From: an uncultured Bacilli bacterium
Lineage (GTDB): Bacteria > Bacillota_I > Bacilli_A > RF39 > UBA660
Reading direction: 5' to 3'
NCBI GenBank assembly: GCA_934096735.1
Contig: CAKOMS010000004.1
Span: 1 to 59,633 of the forward strand
DNA length: 59,633 nt
Shown: in pieces, positions 13,568 through 43,488 of the stretch
How positions within the stretch are numbered: position 1 is the stretch's first letter
Layout: the number at the start of each line of letters is the position of its first letter
Made by a program: the position numbers and the translations under genes
The notes under the pieces: model-generated
Told to the model about the DNA's origin: nothing
Database searches by the model: none
The model's input: the letters and a program-made list of their open reading frames with translations, nothing else

Positions 13568-13585
13568 TTTTTAACCCTTTCTATA

Positions 13586-26796: not shown

Positions 26797-27750
26797 ATGA
26801 AAAAATATATATTACCTCTTTTCTGCTACTTATTTATACTACTAGCATTATTTAATATAAATAAAATAACAGATTATTTAGCAAAAAGTTTATCTGGTAG
26901 TCATAAATTAACAATCGAAAAAGGAAATGATTACACAAAAGATTATGATTTTTTATTTTTACAAAATAGTAAAGATTATATACCTTATTCATATAGTGAT
27001 TTACTTAACATAGTTTATAGTGTCATAAATCAAGGATGGAATGAATTTACCTTTTATTGTCCTAGTGAATATGCAGATTGTGTTAAGGATATAACAAAAC
27101 TTACTAAAGATGAACTAACACTTACTCACGTAAACAACTTTGTACATCCATTCAATAGTTTTAATACTCTAAGTACAAGTATTACAGAGTCTGGTGAAAT
27201 AACTTTAAATATTAAATATTTATATACAAAAAAAGAAATAGATTATATAAATAATTATATAAATACTACTATTATTGATTTAATAAAAGATACGAATGAC
27301 GACTACGAAAAATTAAAAAAAATACATGATTATATAATAAATAATACTAAATATGATATAAAAAGAAATGATTCAGGAGAAAGTGATTATGAATCTTATA
27401 ATGCTTATGGTACTATTAAAAACGGTTATGCAACATGTAATGGATATGCAGATTTAATGGCCATTATATTATCTAAATTAAATTATGAAAATTATAAAAT
27501 AGCCACTACTAAAGAAGAAATAAGCTATGAATCTAATGGACATATTTGGAATGCTGTAAAAATTGATAATAAATGGAAACATTTAGATCTTACTTGGGAT
27601 GATCCCGTAGGAAAAGATGGAAAAGACTATTTATATCATAAATATTTCTTAGTATCAACTGAAGAATTAATTGCATCAGATGCTGGTAATGTAAACATTG
27701 AAGAACACAATTTTAACAAAGCAATTTATATGGAATTTAAAAACAGTTAA
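26797..27750 (+). CDS. membrane-anchored transglutaminase-like (cysteine protease fold) protein
   Basis: catalytic-triad-like GYATCNGYADL ... GHIWNAV ... DLTWDD; N-terminal TM. Confidence 0.8.
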   Translation: MKKYILPLFCYLFILLALFNINKITDYLAKSLSGSHKLTIEKGNDYTKDYDFLFLQNSKDYIPYSYSDLLNIVYSVINQGWNEFTFYCPSEYADCVKDITKLTKDELTLTHVNNFVHPFNSFNTLSTSITESGEITLNIKYLYTKKEIDYINNYINTTIIDLIKDTNDDYEKLKKIHDYIINNTKYDIKRNDSGESDYESYNAYGTIKNGYATCNGYADLMAIILSKLNYENYKIATTKEEISYESNGHIWNAVKIDNKWKHLDLTWDDPVGKDGKDYLYHKYFLVSTEELIASDAGNVNIEEHNFNKAIYMEFKNS

Positions 27751-27772
27751 TTATTCGTTAACTGTTTTATTT
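27738..27772. terminator. bidirectional terminator between convergent genes
   Basis: AACAGTTAA-7 nt loop-TTAACTGTT with T-runs on both strands; overlaps both stop codons. Confidence 0.7.
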
Positions 27773-30163
27773 ATTTTCTTTATAAAATTTAATTGTAGCA
27801 AAACCATTTGTATTATTAGCACCAGATACCTCATTAATTAACTCTGCACTACTATCTACATAATTACTTCCACCATTACCAGAATTATAAGCCGTTACTG
27901 CAGTATCACAGCCATATTTACAAGTATTACTTCCTGTATAACAATTACTACAATTCTTATCTACGTAGCCACCCCTACATGTATTACTTCCAGATTTACA
28001 ACTATCATATACTGAATCACACCCATATTTACAAGTATTACTTCCAGTATAGCAATTACTGCAATTCTTATCTTCATATCCACCTTTACATGTATTTCTT
28101 CCAGTCTTACAACTATCCCATACTTTCTTATATTCTTTACAATACTTAATTTGATGATCTACTATACAAGAACCATTTGTAGTACCTCTCCATTTACAAC
28201 CTTCCCTATTATTACAAGCACTTTTAGTAGAAAGTCCACAACTAGGATTTTTCTTACCCCAAGTCTTACATTCTGAAGTGGTTTTATATCCACCCTTACA
28301 TGTATTACTTCCAGTTTTACAACTATTCCATACCGAATCACATCCATATTTACAAGTATTACTTCCAGTATAGCAATTGCTACAATTCTTATCTACATAA
28401 CCACCGGTACAAGTATTGCTTCCAGTTTTACAGCTATCCCAAACTGAATCACATCCATATTTACAAGTATTACTTCCAGTATAACAGTCACTACAATTAG
28501 TTTTATAAGTATAATTATAGCCAGACCCTCCACCAGAGCCATTTAATCCATCAACACCAGACCCTCCATTAGTTCCAGTTCCACCACTACTAGCGCCACC
28601 TTTTCCAGTACCAGATCCACCTGGAGTACCATTTTGGCCACCGCCACCACCAGCAGCAATTAAAATATTTTTACTATTAAGTCTTATAGTAGTAGCACCT
28701 CCACCATTATAAAGACCAGACCCTCCACCATTATAACCATTAACACCACCAGTATTAATAATGACAGTTTCACCTTTTTTCAAATATACATAAGCAGAAA
28801 CTCTACCACCATTTCCACCATTACCATTACCCTTAGCACCATTAGCACTAATAATATAATAACCAGTATAAGGAACTTCATAAGTTTGCGTGCTTTCTAA
28901 ATAATTAAACGTATTATCTTCTCCTACATAAACAACTTTACAAACAGTATTTGCATTTATATTATCAATACTAAACACATTATTACCTTTATAAGATACT
29001 ACTTGATTATTAGTACAACTAACAGATTTAAATACTGAATTATTTAATGGATTAACACTAAATTCTTTACTTTCACCTTCAAAAACATCAAAACTACTAT
29101 CTCCTACTAGAGTTCCACCACTAACCTCTAAAGAAACATTATATTTTCTATAACTTAAAGTAATTTTACAATCCATATTACTATTAACGTCTTTTACTAT
29201 AAAATTATTACCAGATACAACACCATTACAACTATTCTCGCTTAAACTCATTCCATAACCTTCATAAGGTACAATAGTAAATGTAGCATTTCCTCCTTTA
29301 TTAACATTTTGAGGATTTGTACTAGTAGTATTTCCATTTAAAACATTTAAACGAACACTATAAATAATTGGATTACCTGATGAAGTAAATGTTATATTAT
29401 CTGTAGGACTATAACTATCACCACTTAAATAAGTTTTACCATTACCTTGCCAAGTAGTACTTATTGTATAACCAGATAAAGGTATTGGAGTAGGTAAAAT
29501 AAATGAATTTCCTTCCATAGTAAGAACTCTTTGTACACTAACACTTCCATTAGTAACTTTAAAAATACTTTCATAAAAATTCTTTTTTATTGTAGTAACT
29601 TCATCATAACTATCTTTTACTGAAAAATAATACTCACCTGGAATAGTTATTTCACTTTCCATATTATATTCAAACATCTCTTCATCTAATTTTATATATT
29701 CAACATCTTCTTCTAAAGGATTACTCATTCCAAAATAATAATAATTAACATTTTCTTTATCACTTGCACTTAAAGAAGCCGTTTGTTTTTCAAAAACATT
29801 ATTAGTACTAGCAAATGCAAGCAAAGAATCATTATTTTTATCAAAATACAAATAGCAGTATAAAGTGATATCAGTATCTACTATAACATTACCATTTACA
29901 TATTTCATTTGAACTTCTACCTTTTTATTATCATCATCAATACAACCAGATAATTCTCTATTAAATATATATCCTTTCTTAGGTATACTATCACTATTTA
30001 TATAATTATTATCTCCATCATTTATCATAATAGCATACATATTATTTGAGCTATCTTTATAATTCATTTCTAAAATATTATTATTAATACTTTTAAAACT
30101 TAAAAATACAAATATAATTTCAAAAATAACTAAAACTAAAATTAAAACTTTACTTTTTTTCAT
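27767..30163 (-). CDS. signal-anchored 798-aa surface protein: paralog-shared N-terminal region, glycine-rich domain, nested Cys-rich repeats
   Basis: N-terminal TM; aa ~30-415 homologous to the upstream 501-aa gene; aa 418-798 glycine-rich domain (YEVPYTGYY.ISA.GAKG...GGGATTIRL....LIAAGGGGG...NGFATIKF) with a 199-aa Cys-rich insert. Confidence 0.85.
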   Translation of the reverse strand: MKKSKVLILVLVIFEIIFVFLSFKSINNNILEMNYKDSSNNMYAIMINDGDNNYINSDSIPKKGYIFNRELSGCIDDDNKKVEVQMKYVNGNVIVDTDITLYCYLYFDKNNDSLLAFASTNNVFEKQTASLSASDKENVNYYYFGMSNPLEEDVEYIKLDEEMFEYNMESEITIPGEYYFSVKDSYDEVTTIKKNFYESIFKVTNGSVSVQRVLTMEGNSFILPTPIPLSGYTISTTWQGNGKTYLSGDSYSPTDNITFTSSGNPIIYSVRLNVLNGNTTSTNPQNVNKGGNATFTIVPYEGYGMSLSENSCNGVVSGNNFIVKDVNSNMDCKITLSYRKYNVSLEVSGGTLVGDSSFDVFEGESKEFSVNPLNNSVFKSVSCTNNQVVSYKGNNVFSIDNINANTVCKVVYVGEDNTFNYLESTQTYEVPYTGYYIISANGAKGNGNGGNGGRVSAYVYLKKGETVIINTGGVNGYNGGGSGLYNGGGATTIRLNSKNILIAAGGGGGQNGTPGGSGTGKGGASSGGTGTNGGSGVDGLNGSGGGSGYNYTYKTNCSDCYTGSNTCKYGCDSVWDSCKTGSNTCTGGYVDKNCSNCYTGSNTCKYGCDSVWNSCKTGSNTCKGGYKTTSECKTWGKKNPSCGLSTKSACNNREGCKWRGTTNGSCIVDHQIKYCKEYKKVWDSCKTGRNTCKGGYEDKNCSNCYTGSNTCKYGCDSVYDSCKSGSNTCRGGYVDKNCSNCYTGSNTCKYGCDTAVTAYNSGNGGSNYVDSSAELINEVSGANNTNGFATIKFYKENK
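27902..28498 (-). repeat. coding Cys-rich repeat cassette (aa 556-754; 30 Cys)
   Basis: four copies of NCS[DN]CYTGSNTCKYGCD and four of (V[WY][DN])SCK[TS]G[SR]NTC.GGY, plus a unique 8-Cys middle piece. Near-identical DNA stretches recur (catatttacaagtattacttcc...caatt) at ~27912, ~28024, ~28344, ~28455. Confidence 0.9.
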
Positions 30164-30176
30164 ATTACACCACTAT

Positions 30177-31682
30177 TTAACCATTATAAGTAATTTCTAT
30201 TTCACATTCCATATCTTTAGTAACATTACTTAATGTATATGTCATTTTGCCATTTGCTCTAGTAAATGTTCCTCCACAAGAATTTACATTCAAGTATGAA
30301 TTATACAAATTATAATTATCATCTGTATACACACTAAATACTGCATTTTCTCCATAATTAACATTCATACTTTCAAAAGCATTTACAACTCCTCCTCCAG
30401 TATAACGTCTTCCAGCAATAAGTGTTACTTTAAAAGTCTTCTTCTTTAATATTAAAGTACAGGAAGTATCAGCTATAATATTAGAAATTACATAATTTTT
30501 ACCATTAAATGTTCCTCCACAAGTATCGTTTGATGCTACATAATCATAACCTTCTTTTGGATTTATTACATATGTTGCACTTCTTCCATGTTCTATTGTT
30601 TGTGGATTTGTACTACTTGTTGTAGCATTACCTAAACTTATTCTAAATGTATAAGTTTTCTTTTTAAGTGTTATTGTACAATTTTTTTCCGATGTAACAT
30701 TACTTACTGTATAAGTTGATCCTGATAATGTTCCACTACATGTATCGCTTGCCAAAATTAAATCATATCCAGTATTTGGTATTATTGCAAACGTTGCAGA
30801 TTTACCGTGTAATACAGATTGTGGATTTATACTTGTTGTAGTTCCATTTACTACTGTTAAAGTTACATTATAACTGCTTACATTTGTATTTGCAGATAAA
30901 GTAGAATTAGTTGCTGGCATATATGTACTTCCACTTGCATAACTTTTTCCATTACCCCTCCAAGTTGTATCTATAGTATATCCAGCATTCGCTTTAGGCG
31001 TAGGTAAAATAAATGAATTTCCTTTTAAAGTTATAACACTTGTTGTTGTTACTGTTCCATTTTCCACACTAAATTTTGTTTCAAAAAATTCTTTATTTAT
31101 AGTAGTAACATCACCATAATTATCTTTTACTGAAAAATAATATATACCAGATGCACTAACTTGTACGTTCTTATTTAAACTATTAGAAGAAACACTTACA
31201 TAAGTAACACTACTACTAGAAGGATTTTCAGTACCAAAATAATAACCAACTAATCCATCATCATCACTAGCATTTAAAGTAACAGTTTGACTTTGAGATA
31301 CATTATTTGTAGATGTAATTGATAAACTTGATTGATTATTCATATCAAAATATAAAAAACACTCCATATTTTTAGTAGTAAGAGCACTAACTTTTCCATT
31401 TAAATATTCTATATCAATATCTAATTTATTATTATTACTATCAACACATACTGATTTATTTTTATTAAATGTATAACCAGAAGTAGGAAAAGTACTAGAT
31501 TCATTATAATTACCATTATTATCTTGAATCATAACAGCATAATAACTTCCATCAACAAGAGTTTTTTCTACTATCTCTAATTCTTTATTATTATCTTTAT
31601 TATCTAATTTTTTTTCATCCAAAAAAATGATATTTAAAAAAGCTAAAGTAACAACTATTATATTTACTACATACCTCTTCAT
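30177..31682 (-). CDS. signal-anchored 501-aa surface protein, paralog of the downstream gene, with three ~72-aa Cys-pair Ig/B-repeat-like modules
   Basis: N-terminal TM; shared blocks (YYFSVKDNYGDVTTINKEFFE, GNSFILPTP, GYTIDTTWRGNGKSY). Modules follow Y.VTL.V.NGTTTS.NPQ....G.SAT..I.P..GYD.....D.C.GT..G..Y..SN.....C.I.LKKKT. Confidence 0.85.
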   Translation of the reverse strand: MKRYVVNIIVVTLAFLNIIFLDEKKLDNKDNNKELEIVEKTLVDGSYYAVMIQDNNGNYNESSTFPTSGYTFNKNKSVCVDSNNNKLDIDIEYLNGKVSALTTKNMECFLYFDMNNQSSLSITSTNNVSQSQTVTLNASDDDGLVGYYFGTENPSSSSVTYVSVSSNSLNKNVQVSASGIYYFSVKDNYGDVTTINKEFFETKFSVENGTVTTTSVITLKGNSFILPTPKANAGYTIDTTWRGNGKSYASGSTYMPATNSTLSANTNVSSYNVTLTVVNGTTTSINPQSVLHGKSATFAIIPNTGYDLILASDTCSGTLSGSTYTVSNVTSEKNCTITLKKKTYTFRISLGNATTSSTNPQTIEHGRSATYVINPKEGYDYVASNDTCGGTFNGKNYVISNIIADTSCTLILKKKTFKVTLIAGRRYTGGGVVNAFESMNVNYGENAVFSVYTDDNYNLYNSYLNVNSCGGTFTRANGKMTYTLSNVTKDMECEIEITYNG

Positions 31683-31711
31683 AATATCACCATCCGTATA
31701 TTAAAATAATA

Positions 31712-32581
31712 CTATATTTTCTTATTTTCTTCAACATATTCTATAACTTCATCTACTGTTTTAGAAAAATTATTAAAATCTGTTTTAAACCAAGTAACAT
31801 TCATTTTATTATTAAACCAAGTATATTGTCTTTTAGCATAATGTCTTGAATTTTTTTTAATAAGTTCTACTGAATCATTCAAACTATTTTCTCCATTTAA
31901 ATAAGAAATTAATTCTTTATATCCAATCGCTCTTTTCAATATTTCAGCATCTGGATATTTTTTATAAAGACTTTTTACTTCTTCTAAAAGTCCTTCGTTC
32001 ATCATTTCATCAACTCTATTATTAATTCTTTCATATAATATATTTCTATCAGTAGTAAGCCCAATAAATAAAACATCATATAATATACTACTATTATTTT
32101 CTTTAAATCCTCCTCTATTTAAAAAGTTCTCAAGTCTTATTCTATTATTTTTATGAATTTCCAAATTATTATCTATTTTTTTACACATTTCATATAGTTC
32201 TTCATTATTAAAACTCGAATAATCTTTTTTATCAAAATCTAAAAATTTATAATCATATAATCCTGCAGTTATATAAAGACCAGTACCTCCAACTATAATA
32301 ATATTTCTATCTTTATATTTATCTAATACTTTTCTTAAATCCTTTTGATAAAAAGATACACTATAATCTTGATTAGGATCTTTAATATCAAATAAAATAT
32401 GCTCTACTCCACATTTTTCTTCTTCTTTTACTTTAGCAGTGCCTATATCAAGTTCTTTATATATTTGACAAGCATCAGCATTAACAATAACTCCATTATA
32501 CTTTTTAGCAAGCAGAATACTTAATTTAGTTTTACCAACCCCAGTCGGTCCCACAACACATAAAATCATTTTCATCACCAA
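31712..32581 (-). CDS. miaA: tRNA dimethylallyltransferase
   Basis: P-loop VVGPTGVGKT; ADA.QIYKELDIGTAK; 289 aa. The start may be one of the downstream Met codons (M3/M5). Confidence 0.93.
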   Translation of the reverse strand: MVMKMILCVVGPTGVGKTKLSILLAKKYNGVIVNADACQIYKELDIGTAKVKEEEKCGVEHILFDIKDPNQDYSVSFYQKDLRKVLDKYKDRNIIIVGGTGLYITAGLYDYKFLDFDKKDYSSFNNEELYEMCKKIDNNLEIHKNNRIRLENFLNRGGFKENNSSILYDVLFIGLTTDRNILYERINNRVDEMMNEGLLEEVKSLYKKYPDAEILKRAIGYKELISYLNGENSLNDSVELIKKNSRHYAKRQYTWFNNKMNVTWFKTDFNNFSKTVDEVIEYVEENKKI

Positions 32582-32666
32582 TGTAATTGTATTATAAAAG
32601 ATTTCTAAAAAAAGATAAAGAAAAAAAATTAATAATATGTTATATTTATTAAAAAGGAGTCAAATT

Positions 32667-33779
32667 ATGAAAATTATAGGAATAATTGCAGAATATAATC
32701 CATTCCATAATGGACATATATATCACATAAATAAAATAAAAGAACTATACAAAGATTCAATAATAATATTAGTACTAAATGGATATTTTTTAGAACGTGG
32801 CGAAGTATCAATTATATCTAAACGCGATAAAGTAAACATTGCTCTTTTAAATAATATTGATATAGTCTTAGAATTACCCTTTGTATATGGAACACAAAGT
32901 GCTGATATTTTTGCAAACGCGAGTATTACTTATTTAGAAGACTTAGGATGTGATTATGTTGTATTTGGAAGTGAATCAAATAATTTAGAAAAATTAACAG
33001 AAATAGCACAATATAGCGTTTCAGAAAATGAATTATATAAAGAAAAAATAAAAGAATTATTAAATACTGGCTTAAACTATCCAACTGCTTTAGCAAAAGC
33101 ACTAAATATTGATTTTGATTTTCTACCAAATGATCTATTAGGTATATCTTATATAAAAAGCATTTTAAGTAACAACTATAATATTAAGCCAATAACAATA
33201 AAAAGAACTAATGACTATCATGATACTACTAGCAAAAATGAAATTGTAAGTGCATCAAATATAAGATATAAATTAAAAAATAATGAAAACATAGAAAATT
33301 ATATACCAAAAATAGTATCAAAATACATTCATAATATAGATTTAAATGATTTTTTTAAAAATATTAAATATAAAATAATTACTGAACACGATTTAAGCAT
33401 ATATTTAGATGTAGATGAAGGAATAGAAAATAGACTTAAAAAAGTAATAAATGAATGCTCTACAACTGATGAATTAATAGAAAAAGTAAAATCAAAAAGA
33501 TACACTTACAATAAAATTAGAAGAATGCTTGTACATATTCTAGTAGGTTTTACAAAAGAAGATAATAAAAATTTAAAACACGAATACATAAAAATACTTG
33601 GATTTAATGAAATAGGTAAAAAATATTTAAATAAAAGAAAAAAAGAAACTAATACTTCATTTATAGTAAATAAAGACTCACTAGTTTATAAATATGAACT
33701 TACTGCTGGAGCATTATATGACCTTGTGACAAATAGTAATTCACTAGAATATGAAACAAAAAATAAACCAATTAAATAA
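32667..33779 (+). CDS. tmcAL: tRNA(Met) cytidine acetate ligase (YlbM/UPF0348 nucleotidyltransferase); start re-called to ATG 32667
   Basis: MKIIGIIAEYNPFHNGHIYHI (HxGH-type NTase motif); AAGGAG RBS. Confidence 0.8.
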   Translation: MKIIGIIAEYNPFHNGHIYHINKIKELYKDSIIILVLNGYFLERGEVSIISKRDKVNIALLNNIDIVLELPFVYGTQSADIFANASITYLEDLGCDYVVFGSESNNLEKLTEIAQYSVSENELYKEKIKELLNTGLNYPTALAKALNIDFDFLPNDLLGISYIKSILSNNYNIKPITIKRTNDYHDTTSKNEIVSASNIRYKLKNNENIENYIPKIVSKYIHNIDLNDFFKNIKYKIITEHDLSIYLDVDEGIENRLKKVINECSTTDELIEKVKSKRYTYNKIRRMLVHILVGFTKEDNKNLKHEYIKILGFNEIGKKYLNKRKKETNTSFIVNKDSLVYKYELTAGALYDLVTNSNSLEYETKNKPIK

Positions 33780-33826
33780 ATACATTTTTTACCAATTAAA
33801 TACTTTAGTAACAATATACATTTTTA

Positions 33827-33855
33827 TTGACATATAGTGTCTTTTATGTTAGAAT
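33827..33855 (+). promoter_or_regulatory. near-consensus promoter TTGACA-17-TAGAAT
   Basis: hexamers at 33827..33832 and 33850..33855; GGGGGA RBS follows. Confidence 0.65.
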
Positions 33856-33885
33856 AAAGCGCGTATTCATGAAGGGGGAAGAAAA

Positions 33886-35529
33886 ATGAATAAAGAACTT
33901 ACTGATAAATTATTAAACAAAATAGCAGAATTTGAAGATGCTAATAAAGAGTTAGAAAGTGAAGCAAAAATCTTAAGAAGAATGAGTAAAAGCGGTGCTT
34001 ATTCTGAAAGAGATAAGAAAAGATTCATAAAAAGTTTAGAAGAACTTGAAAATGAACTTGCTTATAATAAAGGTCAAATTGAAGTTTTAAATGATTTCTT
34101 AACTAATGATAAACGATTAAAAGAAATTGAAGAATTAGTTGACGAACTAAAACTTACTGACCCATCTGATACTGAAGTACGTGAAGAGTTAAAAGGAAAA
34201 TTATTAAAACTTGCAGGTGCTACAAAAAAAGATGTTTCTGAAAATATAATTGATTCTTTAGGGTTATCTGAAGAAGATACTGAAGCATTAAAAAAAGACT
34301 TTGAAGAATTTTACAAAGAAACACAAGAAGAATTAAAAGAATTAAAAATAGTATCTAAATATACAAGTAATAAAAAAATTGAAGCAAGAAAAGATGAATT
34401 AACAGAATTAATTACTACTTTAGATGATATTAGAGGTACAAATGACTTTAGTGGTAAGCTTAAAGAAGCTATTGAAAAAAATGCTAGCGATGATGAATTA
34501 GAAGCATTAGTTATAGAAGCAATTAAAAATAACAATGAAGAAGCTACTATTGGTCTTGCTATTGCTGATGGAAAAATAGAAAATCAAGAAGAAGAACTTG
34601 GCGAAGAAGAAGAAAAAGTAAAAACTAAAAAGTCTTCTAAAGGTAAAAAAGGAAAAGAAAAAAGCGAACTTGCTAAAAAGATTGCAAAAATATTTGGAGT
34701 TTCTGCTCTAGCTGTTGCTTTATTAATAGTAGGTTCAAAAGTTATAAAAAGTATAAAAGATTCTAAACCACAAGATTTAGAAGATGAAGATAAAGTAATT
34801 GAAAGTATTGAAGAAGAAAAAAGCATTGAAGATACTATAAATGATGCATACATGAATGAATATGCTGAAATAGCTGCTCTTAAAAATATTACTATGGAAA
34901 AAGCAGTTAATTATGTAAACAGAGCTCATTTATTAATGGAATCTGGATTATTTACTAATTATTCATATGATGACATTGTAGAAATACTAATGGCTATTCA
35001 AGATAATACAATACTTAAAAATGATTCTGAAGGTTTAAATGCTGCTCTACTTACAAAAGCACTAACTGAATTTAATGGAATTCATAACGAATACCAAAAT
35101 GGTAACGGATTAAATGAAGAAGGGCTTAAAAAAGTTGCTGGACTTAAATATTTAGCAAAAGAAGGAACTGATTTAAGAACTTTCTTAAATGATTATGTAG
35201 TATTATCAGGTAATGTTTTAAAAACAAAAGATAATAAGAGTGAAAAAGCTCAAATGTATAACTATTTAGATACTTTTGCAAAAACTTCACTAGGTAATAC
35301 TGATGGCATTACAATAAATGATAGTAATAAATCAGCTGTAATCAAAAACGATTTTGAATGGAATATAGCATATCAATTATTTGCTTATCCATTAATTCCT
35401 GATTATTGCGACTTCTCTACTGAAGAATTAGCAGCTGATTGGGAATGCTTACAAATTAACTTATTAAGTAATTATGAACACTGGGTTGAACTTGAATGTG
35501 ATGAAGAAATAACTTTAGGAGGTAGATAA
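33886..35529 (+). CDS. bitopic membrane protein: ~260-aa acidic coiled-coil N-terminus, Lys-rich juxtamembrane, one TM, ~260-aa alpha-rich C-terminal domain
   Basis: E/K-rich heptad-like text; KTKKSSKGKKGKEKSELAKKIAKIF then GVSALAVALLIVGSKVI; no family recognised. Confidence 0.8.
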   Translation: MNKELTDKLLNKIAEFEDANKELESEAKILRRMSKSGAYSERDKKRFIKSLEELENELAYNKGQIEVLNDFLTNDKRLKEIEELVDELKLTDPSDTEVREELKGKLLKLAGATKKDVSENIIDSLGLSEEDTEALKKDFEEFYKETQEELKELKIVSKYTSNKKIEARKDELTELITTLDDIRGTNDFSGKLKEAIEKNASDDELEALVIEAIKNNNEEATIGLAIADGKIENQEEELGEEEEKVKTKKSSKGKKGKEKSELAKKIAKIFGVSALAVALLIVGSKVIKSIKDSKPQDLEDEDKVIESIEEEKSIEDTINDAYMNEYAEIAALKNITMEKAVNYVNRAHLLMESGLFTNYSYDDIVEILMAIQDNTILKNDSEGLNAALLTKALTEFNGIHNEYQNGNGLNEEGLKKVAGLKYLAKEGTDLRTFLNDYVVLSGNVLKTKDNKSEKAQMYNYLDTFAKTSLGNTDGITINDSNKSAVIKNDFEWNIAYQLFAYPLIPDYCDFSTEELAADWECLQINLLSNYEHWVELECDEEITLGGR

Positions 35530-35530
35530 T

Positions 35531-37339
35531 ATGTATACTGAAGAACCAAGAAGAGAAATTAACTGGGGAAACTTTATAAAAAAAGGTTTAGTAGCATTAT
35601 TTATCTTAATATTAATATTCTTATTAATATGGTCATTTACTAGAAAAGAAAGTCATGGGGTTGATGTTGATTATAACAACAATAATAATCAAAATATAAA
35701 TAGTAATTTAGATGATGCCAAAACATATTCCGAAATATTCATCTCTAACTATAGATACTTACATGATACTGCAAAAGAATATTTCTTAATTAGTGAATTA
35801 CCAAGTAATGGTAAAACAATTAAATATACATTACAAGAATTAATTAATAAAGGATTAATAATTCCATTTAGTTATACTAATGGTAAATCTTGTGATACTG
35901 AAGCAAGTTATGTAACTGTTAAAAATGTTGATGGAAAATATACTTATACCGTTACATTAGTATGTGGTACTGAAGTTGCTACTACTACTGAAGAATTAGG
36001 ATGTAATCAATTATGTAATGGTAAGTCTTGCGATAACAATAATACTCCATCTAAAGATGATACAAAAAAACCAAAAGAAACTGTAAAAGAATATGAATAT
36101 CAATATAAACAAGCTTATAAAGCAAATGAAGCTACTTATACTTGTCCATCTGGATATACTAAAGTAGGAAGTGGTTCAAGTACTAAATGTGTTAAATCAT
36201 CAAGTGATGTTAAAAAGGCAGATGTAACAGTTAAATATTACTGTCCTGAAGGATATACTCATACTAGTGGATCTGATGCTAATATGGTTTGTTCAAAAGG
36301 TAAAAATGAAACAACAAAACCTACTGAAAAAGTAACATATACATGTAAAACAGGATATACACTTAAAGGTAATGAATGCTATAAAACTACTAATGCAACA
36401 ACAAATGTAACTTATAGTTGTCCTACTGGATACAAGAAAAATGGTAACATTTGTACAAAAGAATCTGTAGATACAATTATAGCCAATGTAGATTACACTT
36501 ATACTTGTCCATCTGGATACACTAAAAATGGTACTAAATGTACTAAATACGTTTCTGGTACTACAGTATCTCCAATAAAGAGCACAACAAGTTACTGTTC
36601 AAATGGTACTAAAGAAGGAAATTCATGTGTTTACTACTACTATAGTAAAACATATACATCAAAAAATAGTTGTACTTATATAGGTACAGTTACAAATTAC
36701 TGTGAAAACGGTTCATGTAATAAATTAAGATACAAATATAAATGTACAACTGGTATTTCTAGTAAAGACACTTATACTTGTCCATCTGGTTCTACTCACG
36801 TAAGTGGATCTGGTGCTAACATGGTTTGTAAAACAAGCGGTGGAAACAAAACAATAAATGCTACTGAAAATCCAAACTACAGTTGTCCAAGTGATTATGA
36901 ATTAAATGGAACAAATTGTACTAAGACAGAAACACTAGAAGAAAATGTAAGTAAATCATGTCCTACTGGATATATAATGAATGGAGACAAATGTGTAAAA
37001 ACAACTAATGATAAAATATCAGCAACTAAGACAGTTAATTACACTTGTCCATCTGGTTCTACTCACGTAAGTGGATCTGGTGCTAATATGGTTTGTAAAG
37101 TTAGCGAAGCATCAAATAAAGGACCAATTAAAAATACAACTTACACTTGTCCATCTGGTTATGAAAAAGTTGGAAGCGGATCAGATTCACAATGTGTAAA
37201 GAAATCTAGTGAATCAATTAGTGCAACTAAAACAACTAAATCAGTAACTAAATATAGATATAAATGGAGTAAAGAAACTTCACTTAAAGGTTGGACAAAA
37301 ACTGGAAAATCAAGATTAGTTACAGCAAGCGCTAAATAA
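35531..37339 (+). CDS. signal-anchored 602-aa protein with about 11 Cys-pair repeats (Y.CP.GY...G..C.K)
   Basis: ATG starts 1 nt after the upstream stop, with the GGAGG RBS inside the upstream gene's 3' end; N-terminal TM. Repeats include YTCPSGYTKVGSGSSTKCVK, YSCPTGYKKNGNICTK and YTCPSGSTHVSGSGANMVCK (x2). Confidence 0.8.
   Translation: MYTEEPRREINWGNFIKKGLVALFILILIFLLIWSFTRKESHGVDVDYNNNNNQNINSNLDDAKTYSEIFISNYRYLHDTAKEYFLISELPSNGKTIKYTLQELINKGLIIPFSYTNGKSCDTEASYVTVKNVDGKYTYTVTLVCGTEVATTTEELGCNQLCNGKSCDNNNTPSKDDTKKPKETVKEYEYQYKQAYKANEATYTCPSGYTKVGSGSSTKCVKSSSDVKKADVTVKYYCPEGYTHTSGSDANMVCSKGKNETTKPTEKVTYTCKTGYTLKGNECYKTTNATTNVTYSCPTGYKKNGNICTKESVDTIIANVDYTYTCPSGYTKNGTKCTKYVSGTTVSPIKSTTSYCSNGTKEGNSCVYYYYSKTYTSKNSCTYIGTVTNYCENGSCNKLRYKYKCTTGISSKDTYTCPSGSTHVSGSGANMVCKTSGGNKTINATENPNYSCPSDYELNGTNCTKTETLEENVSKSCPTGYIMNGDKCVKTTNDKISATKTVNYTCPSGSTHVSGSGANMVCKVSEASNKGPIKNTTYTCPSGYEKVGSGSDSQCVKKSSESISATKTTKSVTKYRYKWSKETSLKGWTKTGKSRLVTASAK
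36776..36832 (+). repeat. 57-nt coding direct repeat, copy 1
   Basis: identical to 37043..37099 except one C/T difference. Confidence 0.9.
37043..37099 (+). repeat. 57-nt coding direct repeat, copy 2
   Basis: see copy 1. Confidence 0.9.
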
Positions 37340-37355
37340 GTGCTTGCTTTTTTTT
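37324..37355 (+). terminator. intrinsic terminator after the two-gene operon
   Basis: AGCAAGC(GCT)-loop-(AGT)GCTTGCT followed by T8. Confidence 0.75.
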
Positions 37356-37425
37356 GTAAACATATATTTATTTTGTAAAAAGAATTTCAAAAAGTGGTAT
37401 AATGTTATTAGAAAGAGTTGGTAGA

Positions 37426-38529
37426 ATGAGAAGGAAAAAGAAAAAAATTATTAAATTATTTTTACTATTAATAATATTAATAGTAATAGGTGCTATAATT
37501 TATCTAATATTCTTTAAAACTAAAGAAGATATAGGTTCTAAAAAAGAATATAGTGATAAATCAATATCTGTAATAAATCAAAATAAATTAGAAAATATTT
37601 ATAAAAATAAATATTCTAAAACACTAGATGAAATATTAAAAAATGATTTATTTAGAAATGAATATTTAGACGAATATCAAAATATTGATTATATTGATGA
37701 ATCATTTTTAAAAAATATTAATAAATATCTTGAAAAAGGATATAAAGCAGATGAAGTTAATAATATTACAAAATTAAGCAAAAAGAATCAAGAAAAACTT
37801 TTAGATTTAGAAAAAACTAATTTTGAAAAATTTATAGATATTAAAAATTATGATGCTAATAAAACAGATAGATATAATTCATACATGGAAAAAACAAATA
37901 AAGATATTAATACTGCAGTAACACATGTAAATATAGGCCTTGATAAAGATTTCTATGAAGACACTACTAAAGTAGAAAATCCAGATGATGTAACTGCACT
38001 TATAAATAAGTATCATTATGTAGATAAAGATTTTGTACCAAAAGATTTAGTAGTATTATTTGATAGTAGACAAAATGCAAAAATGACTAGAGTTGCAGCT
38101 GAAGCTTATAAAGAATTTATTGAAGGCTCAAAAAAAGACGGACTTACACTTGAAAGTACAACAGCATATCGTTCATATAATTTTCAAAATGCATTATACA
38201 CAAATTATGTAAGACAAGATGGTGTAAAAAAAGCAGACACCTACTCTGCTAGACCTGGAACAAGTGAACACCAATTAGGACTTGCAGTAGACTTAAATGA
38301 CCCTAATGTATCTGGAGCAAGACTTAATGAAAAAGACGGTAAATGGGTAAGAGAAAATGCTCATAAGTATGGTTTTATTCTAAGATATCTAGAAGAATTT
38401 GTACCAGTTACTGGTTACATGTATGAACCATGGCATATTAGATATTTGGGAAAAGATCTTGCCACAAAGGTTTACGAATCTGGTTTAACATATGATGAAT
38501 ATTACGACTTATATTTAACTGAATATTAA
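37426..38529 (+). CDS. membrane-anchored D-alanyl-D-alanine carboxypeptidase, peptidase M15B (VanY-like)
   Basis: SARPGTSEHQLGLAVDL and EPWHIRYLG zinc-site motifs; start taken at MRRKKKK (the tracked ORF begins at 37402). Confidence 0.85.
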   Translation: MRRKKKKIIKLFLLLIILIVIGAIIYLIFFKTKEDIGSKKEYSDKSISVINQNKLENIYKNKYSKTLDEILKNDLFRNEYLDEYQNIDYIDESFLKNINKYLEKGYKADEVNNITKLSKKNQEKLLDLEKTNFEKFIDIKNYDANKTDRYNSYMEKTNKDINTAVTHVNIGLDKDFYEDTTKVENPDDVTALINKYHYVDKDFVPKDLVVLFDSRQNAKMTRVAAEAYKEFIEGSKKDGLTLESTTAYRSYNFQNALYTNYVRQDGVKKADTYSARPGTSEHQLGLAVDLNDPNVSGARLNEKDGKWVRENAHKYGFILRYLEEFVPVTGYMYEPWHIRYLGKDLATKVYESGLTYDEYYDLYLTEY

Positions 38530-38534
38530 AATAC

Positions 38535-39185
38535 CTAGAGATTTATTTCTCTAGGTATTTTTGTTTCTAATTTTATATTCTCTTTAGTTATAGGATGAAT
38601 AAACTCTAAATAATAAGCATGTAAACATAGTCTTTTTCTATTATCTTTTATATTAGAATATATTTTATCTCCTACTATAGGATGATTAATGCTTTTTAAA
38701 TGTACTCTTATTTGATGATGTCTACCAGTTTTTATTAATACTTCAAGTAAACTAAAATTATCATTATAAGAAATAACTTTATAAATGGTTTTAGCATACT
38801 TTCCATTCTTACTATCTTTAGTAGAATATACCAAATGTGTTTTAGTTTCTTTTAAATATGACTCAATAACTCCATCATTTAAAACTTTTCCATACACTTT
38901 ACATATATATTTTCTTATAACACTATTCCAATTATTTTGTAAATCATATTTTACTTTTTCATTTTTAGCAAATATAACAAGTCCACTCGTATCTTTATCA
39001 AGTCTATGTACTATAAATACTTTATTATTTTTATTTTTCTTTTTTAAATAATCATAAACCTTAGAATATAACGTATTATATTTTTCTTTATCAGTTGAGA
39101 TAGTTAACAAATTATTAGGTTTATTAACTACCAATATATATTTATCTTCATATAAAATATCTAATTTATCTTTTTTCATAATCAT
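38535..39185 (-). CDS. RluA-family pseudouridine synthase
   Basis: HRLDKDTSGLVIFAK catalytic Asp motif; KTGRHHQIRVH. Confidence 0.88.
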   Translation of the reverse strand: MIMKKDKLDILYEDKYILVVNKPNNLLTISTDKEKYNTLYSKVYDYLKKKNKNNKVFIVHRLDKDTSGLVIFAKNEKVKYDLQNNWNSVIRKYICKVYGKVLNDGVIESYLKETKTHLVYSTKDSKNGKYAKTIYKVISYNDNFSLLEVLIKTGRHHQIRVHLKSINHPIVGDKIYSNIKDNRKRLCLHAYYLEFIHPITKENIKLETKIPREINL

Positions 39186-39207
39186 TTACTACAAAAAAAG
39201 TAGTTTC

Positions 39208-39954
39208 CTACTTTTCTTTTTTCTTTGCTAAAGCATCTAATACTTCAATTGGTAAACAAAATACTACAGTATTACCTTTATCTGATGAAATATCACTTAA
39301 AGTTGATAGTGTTCTTAAATGTAATGCTCCTGGAGTTTTACCCATAACCTCGGCAGCTTTAGATAAGTTATTTGAAGCTTCAAGTTCTCCTACAGATTTT
39401 GTAATGACAGCAGTTTTCTCTCTTTCTGCTTCAGCAGCAATAGCAAGAACTCTTTTCATATCTTCTGGTAAAGAAACATCTTTAAGTTCAACATTTTCTA
39501 CTTTAATTCCCCAAGGATCAGTAGCAGCATCAATAATCTTACAAATCTCAGTACTAATTTTTTCTCTTTCAGCTAGTAATTCGTCCAAAGAAACACTTCC
39601 TACAACGTTTCTCATAGTAGTTTGAGCAAGTTGACCAACAGCATAGTAAAAATCCTCTACAGTTAAAATTGCTTTAGAAGCATCAAAAATATTATAATAA
39701 ATTACAGCATTAATTTGTACTGAAACATTATCTTTTGTAATAGCTTCTTGCGCTGGTACATCAACCGCTTTCGTTCTTATATCAATTTTACGAAAAGATT
39801 CAAAAATAGGTAGTACGATTCTCCAACCTGGTTGCATTATTCTAGCAAACTTTCCAAATCTAAATTTAATTCCTCTTTCATATTCATTAATTTGTTTAAT
39901 TGACACTATTATTAAAAGTGCAATAACTATTAAAACAATATATCCAATTTCCAT
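39208..39954 (-). CDS. SPFH/band-7 (stomatin/prohibitin-like) membrane protein
   Basis: N-terminal TM followed by an SPFH core (YERGI.FRFGK...TKDNV.V...AV.Y). Confidence 0.88.
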   Translation of the reverse strand: MEIGYIVLIVIALLIIVSIKQINEYERGIKFRFGKFARIMQPGWRIVLPIFESFRKIDIRTKAVDVPAQEAITKDNVSVQINAVIYYNIFDASKAILTVEDFYYAVGQLAQTTMRNVVGSVSLDELLAEREKISTEICKIIDAATDPWGIKVENVELKDVSLPEDMKRVLAIAAEAEREKTAVITKSVGELEASNNLSKAAEVMGKTPGALHLRTLSTLSDISSDKGNTVVFCLPIEVLDALAKKKEK

Positions 39955-39979
39955 AAATATTCCTCCTATTTAATATATA

Positions 39980-42196
39980 TTATTTTTTCCAAAATCTAGT
40001 CTTTTTTGGCTTTTCTTCTTTACTTTCAGTTGTACTTTCTTCTTTTACTTCTTTAACTTCTTTTTTTGGAAGAGCATCCTTTCTAGATAAATTTAATCTA
40101 CCTCTATTATCATATCCTAAAGATTTAACAATAATTTCATCCCCAACTTTAAATAAATCACTTGGTTTATTAACTCTTTCATAATCAAGTTGTGATACAT
40201 GAACCATACCTTCACATCCAGGCCATAATTCTACAAAACATCCAAAATCTTCTACTTTAGTAACCTTACCAGTATAAATACTACCAGTTTCAACTTCTCT
40301 AACAACAGCTTCAATCATTTCTCTAGTTTTCTTAATAATATTTTCATCAGTATGATAAATAAGTACTCTACCGTCATCTTCTAAATCAACTTTTACAGCA
40401 TCTTTATCATTTACACTACTTACATTACTAGCCTCTAAAATAATCTTAGTAATCATTTCTCCACCACGACCAATAACGTCTTTAATTTTTTCAGGATCAA
40501 TATTAAATGATTCAATCTTTGGAGCATAAGGACTTAATTCTTTTCTAGGTTCAGTTATAACTGTTTCAAATAAATCCAATATTTGCATTCTAGCCTTTTT
40601 AGCTTGCTCTAAAGCTTCTTTCAAAATATCTCTATTAACACCATCTATTTTAATATCCATTTGTAGTGCACATATACCTTTTCTAGTACCAGCCACTTTA
40701 AAATCCATATCTCCTAGATGATCTTCCATACCTTGTATATCTGTAAGTATTGTATATTTATCTTCATTAGTAATAAGTCCCATAGCTATACCTGCTACTG
40801 GAGCTTTAATTGGAACACCTGCAGCCATTAAACTTAAACATCCAGCACAAATACTTGCTTGACTTGATGAACCATTACTTTCAAGTATTTCAGATACAAC
40901 TCTAATTGTATAAGGGAATTCTTCTTCTGAAGGAATAACTTGTAATAATGCTCTTTCTCCTAATGCACCATGACCAATCTCTCTTCTTCCAGGACTTCCA
41001 TATTTGCCAGTTTCACCAACACTAAATTGAGGAAAATTATAATGTAACATAAATCTCTTTTCATCTTCTATAGAAAGACCATCTAATATTTGATGTTCAC
41101 CTAAAGCACCAAGAGTTGTAATTGATAAACTTTGTGTTTGTCCTCTTGTAAATAAAGCTGAACCATGAGTTCTAGGCAAAATATCTATTCCACAAGAAAG
41201 AGGTCTTATTTCATCCATCTTTCTTCCATCAATTCTTATTTTTTCATTAACTACAATTTTTCTAAAAGTACTATATTGTACACTCTCAAATATTAAACAT
41301 AATTTAGTAATAAGTTCCTTAAATTCCTCTGCTTTTAACTTATCCTCAAATTCATTAGTATATTTTTCAATAATACCCTCTTTTATTTTATCAATTGCTT
41401 CATACATAGTAGCTTTATCTTTAATTCTAAGTGCTTCATCTAATTCTTTTTCACATAAAGAAGTAACATCATTTCTAAGTTCATCAGTAATTTCAAGTCT
41501 TGGATAATCCATCTTTTCTTCACCAATTTCCTTAATAATTTCTTCTTCAAATGCTACTAATTTTTTAATTGCTTCATGTCCAAATAATAAAGCATCAAGC
41601 ATATCTTCTTCTAAAACTTCTTTACTACCAGCTTCAACCATATTAATTGCATCTTTTGTACCAGCAACAGTTAAATCAATATCACTTAATTCCATTTCTT
41701 CAACAGTAGGATCAATAATAAATTTACCATTTACTCTTCCAACCTTTACAGCAGCAACTGGACCATTAAATGGAATCTTACTAATTGATGTTGCTAAACT
41801 AGAACCAAATAATGCAGTTAACTCTGGAGAATTATCTTGATCAACAGATAAAACTGTATTTACAATTTGAACTTCATTCCTAAAATCTTCTGGAAAAAGT
41901 GGTCTCATTGGTCTATCAATCATTCTTGCAGCAAGTGTTGCATTATCAGTTGGTCTTCCCTCTCTTTTAATAAATCCACCTGGAATTTTTCCAACAGAAT
42001 ATAATTTTTCATTATATAAAACCATTAATGGAAAAAAATCAGACAATAAATTTGCATTTTTAGATACTACTGCAGTACTAAGTATTACAGTATCTCCAAA
42101 TCTTACTAAAACACTACCATGTGCTTGTTTAGCTAGTTCTCCATGTTCTACTACCAACTTTCTTCCATAGAAATCTAACTCAAATACTTTCTTCAT
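39980..42196 (-). CDS. pnp: polyribonucleotide nucleotidyltransferase (PNPase)
   Basis: two RNase PH domains, KH, S1 ([15 protein letters not shown]); 738 aa with basic tail. Confidence 0.97.
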
Positions 42197-42215
42197 TTCT
42201 TACCTCTTTCTAAAT

Positions 42216-42241
42216 AAAAAGACACTAAAAATTTTAGTGCC
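42216..42241 (-). terminator. rpsO terminator / pnp leader hairpin
   Basis: GCACTAAA-loop-TTTAGTGTC followed by T5 on the minus strand, between rpsO and pnp. Confidence 0.55.
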
Positions 42242-42242
42242 C

Positions 42243-42512
42243 TTACTTTCTTAAATTTAATTTTTTAATTACTTCTCTATAACTTGCAATATCATTTTCT
42301 TTTAAATAACTAAGTAATTTTTTTCTTCTACCAACTTTGATTAACAATCCTCTTTTTGAATGGTAGTCATGCTTATGTTCTTGCATGTGTTTAGTTAAAT
42401 CATTAATTTCTTTTGTAAGAATAGCAATTTGTACTTCAGCTGAACCACAATCTTTTTCAGTCTTAGCAAATTCTTTAATAATACTTGCTTTTTCTTCTTT
42501 CTTTAAAGCCAT
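42243..42512 (-). CDS. rpsO: 30S ribosomal protein S15
   Basis: GSAEVQIA.LT..I..LT.H...HKHD.HS.RGL...V..R..LL.YL; 89 aa. Confidence 0.96.
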   Translation of the reverse strand: MALKKEEKASIIKEFAKTEKDCGSAEVQIAILTKEINDLTKHMQEHKHDYHSKRGLLIKVGRRKKLLSYLKENDIASYREVIKKLNLRK

Positions 42513-42596
42513 AATACATTCCTTTCTATTTATTTTAAACGGTTAAAACTGAGACTAAAAACGGAAATCCTTTAATCTAAGTAAAAACTTAATATT

Positions 42597-42625
42597 ATTA
42601 TATTATAAAGTACCAAAAATGTAAA
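42597..42625 (-). promoter_or_regulatory. promoter TTTACA-17-TATAAT upstream of rpsO (about 80-nt leader)
   Basis: -35 rc of 42620..42625; -10 rc of 42597..42602. Confidence 0.5.
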
Positions 42626-42642
42626 CATAAATTTATAGTAAG

Positions 42643-43488
42643 TTAACTACAAAGCATTATTTTTAACTTACCAATATTACGAGAAAACTCATAAAGTGCA
42701 ATTTCTTTATTATCTCTTACAAAAAGTACATATCCATTATATTGAATTTCTAATTTATTGCCATTAATAACCTTTTTAAATAATGCATCATTTAATTCTA
42801 CTACACTAACATCAAGTACATCTTTAATACTTAAACTTTTATAATTATCCTTTTCTATATCTTCTAAACTATAAGAATCTTCAATTTTAAAATTCCCTTG
42901 TTTAGTTCTAACTAAACTACTCATAGTACCACATGTATTTAATTTATCACATACACTTTGAATTAAACTTCTTACATAAGTCCCCTTACTTACTACTACT
43001 CTAAAAGTAATAATATCATCTTTATAATCTATTAATTCTATCTCTTTAATATATACATTTCTTATAGGTACATCTACTTCAATATTATTTCTTGCATATT
43101 CATAAAGTCTTTTTCCTTTAACTCTTACTGCACTATAAAGTGGTACTTCACTAGAATATTCTCCAACAAAACTATTTAAAATTTTCTTAATATAATCTTT
43201 GTCATAATATTCTACTTTGGATGTCTTAATAACTTCACCCGTAATATCAAGTGTATCAGTACTAATACCTAACTTTATACTAGCAATATATTCTTTTTCT
43301 AAACCAGTAATTATTTCAACTAATTTAGTATATTTATTTGTTACACATACAAGTACACCAGTAGCAAGTGGATCTAGTGTACCAGTATGGCCAATTTTCC
43401 TAGTACCTTTCATATATATTAATTTATTTACCACATCTCTACTAGTATAATCAGTTGGTTTATAAACAACTATAATTTCATTATTCAT
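42643..43488 (-). CDS. truB: tRNA pseudouridine55 synthase
   Basis: KIGHTGTLDPLATGVL catalytic motif; 281 aa. Confidence 0.93.
   Translation of the reverse strand: MNNEIIVVYKPTDYTSRDVVNKLIYMKGTRKIGHTGTLDPLATGVLVCVTNKYTKLVEIITGLEKEYIASIKLGISTDTLDITGEVIKTSKVEYYDKDYIKKILNSFVGEYSSEVPLYSAVRVKGKRLYEYARNNIEVDVPIRNVYIKEIELIDYKDDIITFRVVVSKGTYVRSLIQSVCDKLNTCGTMSSLVRTKQGNFKIEDSYSLEDIEKDNYKSLSIKDVLDVSVVELNDALFKKVINGNKLEIQYNGYVLFVRDNKEIALYEFSRNIGKLKIMLCS

Follow-up and report, generated by a model that had tools for sequence, protein, structure and literature searches.

We analyzed a 59,633-nucleotide stretch of DNA from an uncultured Bacilli bacterium of the order RF39 (GenBank contig CAKOMS010000004.1; hereafter the window) and focused on two adjacent genes at positions 33827-37356, referred to as gene 1 and gene 2. 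An earlier sequence-only reading had recognized neither protein and had proposed that the pair forms a dedicated envelope-spanning complex. Our analysis showed that both protein families are undescribed and, on comparison with related genomes, that the pair is a real, conserved unit. We lean toward the interpretation, at a little under an even chance, that the pair makes up a trans-envelope surface structure, in which gene 2 would be the stalk, ending in a conserved aromatic tip, and gene 1 the base. Attachment or recognition would be the most likely role, the basis for this being the architecture, the fast evolution and the replacement of alleles.

The operon region contains exactly two long open reading frames (ORFs), both on the + strand. 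Its signals and the parts of the two proteins are arranged as follows:

33827-33855, + strand: promoter TTGACA-17-TAGAAT with a TG extension, of sigma-A type, matching 11 of 12 consensus positions
33872-33879, + strand: ribosome-binding site (RBS) of gene 1, AAGGGGGA, 6 nt ahead of the ATG
33886-35529, + strand: gene 1 ORF, 547 aa
33886-34671, + strand: cytoplasmic part of gene 1 (aa 1-262), a helical hairpin region with acidic heptad-like helices and a Lys-rich juxtamembrane patch
34681-34737, + strand: predicted transmembrane (TM) segment of gene 1 (about aa 266-284, N-in/C-out), from hydropathy, a Lys-rich N-side flank and a helix in the model
34738-35529, + strand: extracellular helical domain, tail and stop codon of gene 1, with a folded core at about aa 316-531 and a tail containing Cys538 and T-L-G-G-R
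35518-35522, + strand: RBS of gene 2, GGAGG, within the L-G-G-R codons of gene 1
35531-37339, + strand: gene 2 ORF, 602 aa
35531-35644, + strand: cytoplasmic N-terminus (MY-x-EE...INW) and signal-anchor TM of gene 2, with M1, Y2, I10 and W12 invariant or nearly so
35723-36040, + strand: membrane-proximal alpha/beta base domain of gene 2 (aa 65-170), with Cys 121, 145, 158, 162 and 167 conserved
36086-36565, + strand: stalk part 1 of gene 2, a long strand followed by five Cys-pair hairpin units, all-beta in the model
36566-36760, + strand: degenerate unit and central four-Cys module of gene 2 (Cys 381, 391, 396 and 405)
36761-37210, + strand: stalk part 2 of gene 2, six Cys-pair units, including a 57-nt near-identical pair
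37211-37339, + strand: distal tip and stop codon of gene 2, with the motif Y-x-Y-K-W-S-x4-L-x-G-W-x-x-T-G-K-(S/T)
37324-37356, + strand: intrinsic terminator, a 10-bp stem (37324-37348, 5 GC pairs) followed by eight T

The promoter was the top scorer of 30 promoter-like sites in 6 kb scanned on both strands, and only two sites on both strands together, this promoter included, scored at least 10/12. Terminator-like sites in the region numbered 2, against 0.9 expected. The junction between the genes reads TAA-t-ATG, which leaves 1 nt between stop and start. The near-consensus promoter, the strong terminator and the tight junction with its embedded RBS had all been picked out from the sequence beforehand, and each was borne out here. 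With these co-transcription signals, gene 1 and gene 2 constitute a self-contained transcription unit. Because the whole arrangement is kept in dozens of other genomes, a chance origin is excluded.

The gene 1 protein has the topology described for it by the sequence-only reading, namely an acidic, heptad-like inner part, a Lys-rich patch, one TM segment and a helical outer domain. Residues 1-262 contain 18.7% Glu, 15.6% Lys and 12.2% Leu, with a net charge of -19 and one Pro, and the enrichment of heptad a/d positions reached z = 3.0 against shuffled sequences; this part is heptad-like but interrupted. In the AlphaFold2 model, the ectodomain is all-helical, with 11 helices, a mean predicted local distance difference test score (pLDDT) of 82.6, values above 90 in the core and low confidence in the C-terminal tail. 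A Foldseek search with the ectodomain against the Protein Data Bank (PDB) returned nothing significant (top E 1.2, TM-score about 0.2), and its sequence profile gave zero matches among PDB sequences. The ectodomain family is small: an exhaustive search found 69 representatives among 1.84 billion clusters, and it was needed for this number, a word-index search having given just 4-5 proteins, profile included.

The C-terminus of gene 1 deserves a separate remark. Many gene 1 relatives end in T-L-G-G, and in the window this end (35514-35529) overlaps the GGAGG Shine-Dalgarno sequence of gene 2, so part of the protein motif may reflect a constraint on the RBS. Many family members with a gene gap of 1-2 nt end in TLGG or LGLGG. 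An explanation of the tail as a pure RBS imprint holds only in part, since relatives with gaps of 13-32 nt keep tails resembling (S/T)-L-x-K.

The layout proposed earlier for gene 2, with a short N-terminus, one TM segment, a globular piece and 11 Cys-pair units, also stood, and the near-perfect internal duplicate could be read directly from the sequence (36776-36832 versus 37043-37099; 57 nt, 1 mismatch). The N-terminal region is 19 aa long, and the TM helix covers aa 12-38 in the model. The protein contains 31 Cys in total, five of them in the base domain of about 100 aa and the others in the units and the central module; the repeats comprise 11 canonical Y-x-C-P-x-G-Y...C-x-K units, one degenerate unit and one central four-Cys module. 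The model (pLDDT 80.6, predicted TM-score 0.32, the latter as expected of an elongated rod) runs from the TM helix through a low-confidence linker, a helix-plus-four-strand base and an all-beta stalk to a long terminal hairpin. The base domain consists of a helix at 68-87 and strands at 96-100, 127-133, 136-145 and 148-156 (pLDDT 85-95), with low confidence for the C-x3-C-x4-C stretch. At the tip, strands 566-580 and 589-598 form a long beta-hairpin, in which all subfamilies keep Y575, Y577, W579, S580, G587, W588, T591 and G592 with few or no exceptions. The C-terminus of gene 2 (...GKSRLVTASAK) has neither an LPXTG motif nor a hydrophobic segment, and its N-terminus (MYTEEPRREINW...) has no class III signal peptide, as in every gene 2 relative. 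A zinc-ribbon reading of the Cys pairs was rejected because CxxC knuckles are absent.

Database searches likewise left both proteins without a family. Searches of Pfam, NCBIfam, PHROGs and PADLOC gave nothing meaningful for either protein apart from a partial Sushi match in gene 2, in agreement with the sequence-only reading, and these curated families, known adhesin repeats among them, gave no meaningful above-threshold match. The full gene 2 model had no significant PDB neighbor in Foldseek (top E 0.11, with no pilin among the matches); thus, both proteins have confident AlphaFold models without a significant structural neighbor. The sequence profile of the gene 2 base domain had zero matches among PDB sequences, pilins included, and the isolated domain gave only noise against Pfam at E up to 10. 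As for a phage or defence origin, neither protein matched PHROGs or PADLOC, and relatives were absent from IMG/VR. A fold search of BFVD produced one unnamed, uninformative match (E 9e-6, TM-score 0.06). Two insignificant matches to spore appendages (9n0b, E 1.2; 9ihh, E 0.59) were noted and then dropped.

The Sushi match of gene 2 (PF00084) scored 24.5 bits against a cutoff of 20.7, as the sum of three partial stretches, the best of which covers profile positions 16-39 of 56. Similarly, the gene 2 profile matched complement receptor 1 among PDB sequences with a summed E of 2e-23, whereas each single stretch had E >0.5. The stalk motif Y-x-C-(P)-x-G-Y-x-(L/K)-x-G-x-x-C resembles the hairpin motif common to complement control protein (CCP)/Sushi modules (PF00084) and the C-terminal half of epidermal growth factor (EGF) modules (cEGF, PF12662). 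However, CCP modules have about 60 aa, four Cys (I-III, II-IV) and a conserved Trp, whereas the units of gene 2 have 25-34 aa; because these hold two Cys each and no Trp, they are not CCP domains. To judge by the sequence, the match is a resemblance of motif and not domain membership. The cEGF family was not listed for gene 2 at E up to 1, and precomputed matches to it occur in some homologues only.

At least 848 relatives of gene 2 were found, all of them unnamed or labelled 'hypothetical' except for one with the JGI label 'TraN'. They come from gut metagenomes and metagenome-assembled genomes (MAGs) labelled uncultured Bacilli, Tenericutes, Mollicutes or Candidatus Coprovivens. Coprovivens corresponds to GTDB order RF39, family CAG-1000 (PMC8035907). 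Conserved across the family are the N-terminus MY-x-EE...INW, the TM segment, the five-Cys base, the Cys pairs, the central module and the C-terminal motif. The number of hairpin units varies between species, and the relatives span 389 to 924 aa; the length of the coiled coil varies between species as does that of the stalk.

The genomic context was determined for 77 loci with a gene 2 relative, all from uncultured gut Bacilli (RF39-type MAGs). An ORF on the + strand lies upstream of the gene 2 relative in 68 of the 77, mostly ending within about 30 nt of it. In 61 loci this is a classified bitopic ORF that adjoins the gene 2 relative on its upstream side and on the same strand, in most cases with a gap of 1-32 nt: 27 belong to cluster 1, the recognizable gene 1 relatives, and 34 to clusters 6 and 14. 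Three further unclassified bitopic ORFs raise the partner count to 64/77, and a reverse look-up from gene 1 relatives found gene 2 again immediately downstream. The pairing is kept although the flanks differ by clade, with tmcAL, vanY, rluA, band-7 and pnp in one and tmRNA and pheST in another. In 46 of 57 loci, the 200 nt ahead of the gene-1-like gene contained a sigma-A promoter scoring at least 10/12, nearly always as TTGACA-17 with TG. In a crude scan, most related loci had a hairpin and T-run after the pair (16/57 at -7 kcal/mol or better); these counts are lower bounds, because the scan missed a terminator of the window type in L001. A GGGGG is also kept ahead of the start codon in Coprovivens-clade loci.

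The partner groups are, as far as profile comparison tells, joined by homology chains from cluster 1 through 14 to 6. Clusters 1 and 14 are linked through the N-terminal 86 aa or so (hhalign Prob 96.7, E 4e-10), and clusters 14 and 6 through the ectodomain (Prob 98). Eight of ten Coprovivens-clade (cluster 6) partners score above the Pfam DnaJ gathering threshold of 27.8 bits (32-50 bits), and the HPD tripeptide occurs in one of 31 family-B partners (L028). These matches indicate that the partner is modular: its cytoplasmic part is a coiled coil in the window, whereas Coprovivens-clade partners have a J domain there, in most cases lacking HPD. Gene 1 of the window has neither a DnaJ match (PF00226) nor HPD. 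The idea that its N-terminus is a decayed J domain was dropped for lack of evidence, because an hhalign comparison of the cluster 1/14 N-terminus with the J-like domain gave no signal.

Several features of the upstream regions were observed in passing. In seven loci of the window's clade (L009, L010, L011, L014, L015, L021 and L081), a protein of 143-151 aa with two XRE-type HTH domains is encoded directly upstream on the same strand and takes the place of tmcAL beside the gene 1 relatives; it is possibly a local regulator. In eleven Coprovivens-clade loci (L029, L030, L031, L034, L035, L037, L039, L045, L060, L065 and L076), two conserved promoter-like elements precede the partner gene: a perfect TTGACA-17/18-TATAAT about 140 nt upstream, and an invariant TATA..GATAAAGTTGAC-N17-TAG(A/T)(T/G)T about 70 nt upstream, with a -10 region (ATGTTAG) similar to the window promoter. 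Rfam gave no riboswitch family for the long 5' leaders of this clade.

Next, the window was compared with three contigs from other strains of the same species (L001, L002 and L003). Against L001 and L003, the flanks at 31750-33959 and 37349-42250 were 100% identical, and all 104 differences of the 33-38 kb region fell within 33960-37348. The divergent block thus begins 74 nt into gene 1 and ends at 37348, in the stem of the terminator; in L002 its left edge lies about 0.8 kb further left. Within the block, dS is 0.08-0.10, with dN/dS of 0.10 for gene 1 and 0.19 for gene 2. Such values mark the block as an imported allele that is kept under purifying selection, and not as a burst of point changes; as it coincides with the operon, the pair was probably exchanged as a unit.

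Against L001-L003, sharply bounded divergent blocks in otherwise identical DNA were seen at 27750-31750, 33960-37348 and 42500-44000; the last covers truB, rbfA and the start of infB, and the other two are surface-protein operons. Mosaicism is therefore not unique to the two-gene operon. The first of these blocks holds an island at 27767-31682 on the - strand, with genes for a 501-aa and then a 798-aa protein, both unrelated to the operon pair. The two proteins have similar N-terminal halves, to which the larger adds a Gly-rich stretch, CSNCYTGSNTCKYGCDSVWDSCKTGSNTCKGGY-type repeats and 36 Cys. Pfam gives no family for them, and their identity between strains is 95.7% (dS 0.12), with identical neighbors.

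Variation within the species is unevenly distributed over the two proteins. Variable positions amount to 11% in the inner coiled coil of gene 1 and 9% in the stalk and tip of gene 2, against 1.9% in the gene 1 ectodomain, 2.8% in the gene 2 base and 0% in gene 2 aa 1-11; the degenerate unit and central four-Cys module of gene 2 vary at 3%. Over 18 species, the Kimura distance of the gene 2 base was 0.55 and that of the gene 1 ectodomain 1.45, compared with 0.14 for PNPase. Going by these comparisons, the fast evolution of both proteins appears typical of exposed proteins.

The cysteine content offers a possible physical link between the two proteins. Nearly every gene 2 homologue has an odd Cys total, because the base domain has five Cys, which nearly all of them share. 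On the partner side, 79% of cluster 1 members have a Cys some 10 residues ahead of their C-terminus, and a single Cys near the C-terminal end of the ectodomain is conserved in 100% of cluster 6. The lone partner Cys and the odd Cys of the gene 2 base therefore lead to a concrete prediction, and this parity suggests an intermolecular disulfide between the base regions of gene 1 and gene 2. Two other observations hint at contact: the matched conservation of the membrane-proximal parts, and a weak partial Mantel correlation of the gene 1 ectodomain with the gene 2 base when PNPase is controlled for (r 0.35, permutation p 0.02).

Taken together, the operon encodes two single-pass membrane proteins of N-in/C-out topology, which are produced jointly and most probably function as partners. 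In the model that we favor, the signal-anchor of gene 2 would hold the small alpha/beta base domain at the membrane, and from there a rod of beta-hairpins, with one cysteine pair stapling each of them, would extend over a species-dependent length to the nearly invariant aromatic beta-hairpin tip (YxYKWS...GW..TGKT), the likely binding end. The helical outer domain of gene 1 would be placed next to gene 2's base domain, and a disulfide between the lone Cys near the gene 1 C-terminus and the odd fifth Cys of the base might link the two. The variable cytoplasmic part of gene 1, a coiled coil or a J domain, would tie the structure to cytoplasmic partners.

A number of points weigh against this model. 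Nine intact loci have a gene 2 relative without a partner. The two types of partner ectodomain show no detectable similarity to each other (hhalign Prob 1-2%), which is awkward if both have to dock on one and the same conserved base domain. Cluster-14 partners have no conserved lone Cys, and for a strict anaerobe, disulfides that are stable outside the cell cannot be taken for granted. The dN/dS values of 0.10 and 0.19 indicate purifying selection, and since other divergent blocks cover housekeeping genes, the island need not reflect selection on the operon. The co-evolution signal between the two membrane-proximal domains appears weak. The contact of the two proteins, the disulfides and the surface exposure are inferred, as is a role in attachment or recognition. 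Consequently, the dedicated complex of the sequence-only reading is plausible and stands in part: the transcription unit, the conserved promoter and a partner adjoining in 61 (or 64) of the 77 loci despite differing flanks speak for it, whereas the nine partnerless loci, in which gene 2 occurs independently, and the two unlike ectodomains do not.

Among known systems, the traAB pair of Myxococcus appears, by analogy, to be the closest functional analogue in print. TraA and TraB form an outer-membrane exchange receptor pair that is encoded in an overlapping two-gene operon and is allelically diverse (PMC6372800). As in our model, a surface receptor with cysteine-rich repeats is combined with a required partner that does not itself determine recognition. 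However, TraA/TraB belong to a Gram-negative outer membrane, and the distal domain of TraA is PA14-like and polymorphic and is accompanied by a MYXO-CTERM sorting signal, whereas both proteins of the window are N-terminally anchored in the cytoplasmic membrane and the distal tip is conserved, not polymorphic. Neither PA14-like, MYXO-CTERM nor OmpA (TraB) domains were detected in the two proteins with Pfam and NCBIfam, and they have no sequence similarity to TraA/B. The logic is thus common to both pairs, but the defining domains are not.

The G5-E repeats of SasG/Aap are tandem, all-beta, elongated rods of variable repeat number that hold a functional end across the cell wall. Gene 2 resembles them as a variable-number all-beta rod that would keep its functional end off the membrane. 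SasG/Aap differ in having a C-terminal LPXTG sortase anchor, no Cys and no dedicated bitopic partner, whereas gene 2 has an N-terminal TM segment and Cys pairs. ARC6/ZipN(Ftn2) with PDV2, and Mycoplasma TopJ with adhesins, combine a J or J-like domain, one TM segment and an extracytoplasmic domain with a membrane or surface partner. No sequence or fold similarity of the pair to these proteins was detected, and only the cluster-6 partners have a J domain.

Other explanations of the pair were considered. One of them takes gene 1 as a dedicated assembly factor for gene 2, a co-chaperone-like protein that aids export, folding or oxidation of the stalk. The DnaJ matches of eight of the ten Coprovivens-clade partners (one with HPD) and the tight translational coupling of the genes agree with this explanation, as does the swapping of partner domains between clades while gene 2 stays recognizable, which fits an accessory factor better than a structural subunit. 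However, stimulation of Hsp70 requires HPD, and only one of the J domains examined has kept it; the window's gene 1 has no J domain. Moreover, its ectodomain contains no CxxC or other redox motif, and the 1:1 coupling and strong promoter exceed what a catalytic helper needs. We consider an assembly factor unlikely. An alternative that we hold to be distinctly improbable is a scaffold for envelope architecture or division, like ARC6/ZipN with PDV2 or MapZ, in which gene 2 would serve as a wall-spanning spacer or ruler and not as an adhesin. The likeness to ARC6/ZipN and MapZ lies in the bitopic partner, which joins an extracytoplasmic domain to a cytoplasmic part that is J-like or a coiled coil; in addition, the pair adjoins an LdcB/VanY-type carboxypeptidase gene in the window's clade, the window also has dcw genes and SpoIIP, and the lengths of stalk and coiled coil depend on the species. 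Against these points, the neighborhood is not conserved (pheST and tmRNA stand beside the pair in the other clade), and division scaffolds usually evolve slowly, whereas the gene 1 ectodomain changes at about 10 times the rate of PNPase. Furthermore, known division proteins showed no similarity in Pfam, NCBIfam, PDB fold and PDB sequence searches.

A third explanation derives gene 2 from a type IV pilin that has lost its prepilin leader and still serves a pilus or pseudopilus system, with gene 1 being incidental. Gene 2 resembles type IV and modular pilins in its hydrophobic N-terminal helix, a helix on a small beta-sheet and large C-terminal modules, and the order of its base domain in the model, a long helix followed by four strands, is pilin-like. 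Prepilin-type genes (MKK.GFTLVELL...) follow gene 2 relatives at L067 3635-5512, L042 12716-13666 and L051 4697-5110, where those relatives are partnerless, and a pairwise BLASTP with the GFTLVE prepilin-type neighbor in L067 gave E 7e-5 over a stretch that starts in the TM segment and continues through the helix of the base domain. With its tandem repeats and a C-terminal end rich in Cys, this neighbor of 625 aa has the appearance of a modular pilin. However, pilins carry a G/FTLxE prepilin leader, in place of which gene 2 has a conserved cytoplasmic N-terminus of 10-20 aa, and no gene 2 relative has a class III signal peptide. The hhalign probability against the prepilin-type neighbor was just 9.7%, neither the PDB sequence profile nor the whole-model fold search found a pilin, and pilin neighbors occur in 3/77 loci only. 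Homology of gene 2 to pilins is not established by these sequence comparisons, and we regard this third explanation as a whole as very unlikely. A putative prepilin peptidase beside gene 2 in L051 was dropped on reading the protein, which has five TM segments and an N-terminus that we take to resemble SpoIIGA. The two proteins might also be functionally unrelated and merely share an operon, since the partner ectodomain is not conserved across clades and nine loci have no partner. We give this almost no credence: adjacency, order, strand and short spacing are kept in 61/77 loci despite differing flanks and very fast change, a conserved promoter precedes the pair and a hairpin with a T-run follows it in most loci, and the pair was replaced together between strains.

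A few observations concern the surroundings of the pair and its host. The host DNA has a GC content of 26%, and the window contains dcw genes, penicillin-binding proteins (PBPs), an LdcB/VanY-type peptidase and SpoIIP. Homologues of SpoIIP were found at 24407-25363 on the - strand of the window (Pfam, 178 bits) and at L079 121-1026, which suggests that the lineage keeps at least part of the sporulation engulfment machinery. Sporulation-specific expression of the pair, or a place on the spore surface, is not favored because its promoter is of sigma-A type. Two surface-protein genes lie at 10727-14590 on the - strand, between two PBP genes of the dcw region; one encodes 946 aa without a Pfam match, and the other 334 aa with three Listeria-Bacteroides repeats (172 bits). 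At L081 1-1045, the signature of a diversity-generating retroelement was seen, consisting of genes for a reverse transcriptase (RVT_1) and a bAvd-like protein; the pair lies about 4 kb downstream on this contig.

What is new about the pair is the protein family and the variant of membrane-anchored surface stalk that it represents, but not yet a mechanism. It adds two undescribed families, one with a confidently predicted helical fold that has no PDB neighbor and the other a bacterial rod of EGF/CCP-like half-hairpins. Sortases are reported to be lost in the related orders RFN20 and ML615J-28 (PMC10868615); going by this context from related orders, a TM-anchored stalk would be one way of displaying a surface ligand in sortase-less lineages. 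A more far-reaching proposal, which we think has a small chance of being right, is an RF39-specific trans-envelope apparatus in which a pilin-derived, disulfide-stapled stalk with its conserved aromatic tip would be bound covalently, through an intermolecular disulfide, to a bitopic partner of new helical fold, whose J-like or coiled-coil arm would couple the surface to the cytoplasm (e.g. to DnaK), and which sortase-less lineages would use as their principal device for surface display or attachment. If the J-like link is functional, this would be an unusual coupling of a surface organelle to the chaperone system. RF39-type Bacilli are widespread, uncultured bacteria with small genomes in human and animal guts, and their cell surface is almost uncharted; the pair is thus a prime candidate for the binding structure that they show outward, and for what phages or hosts see of them.

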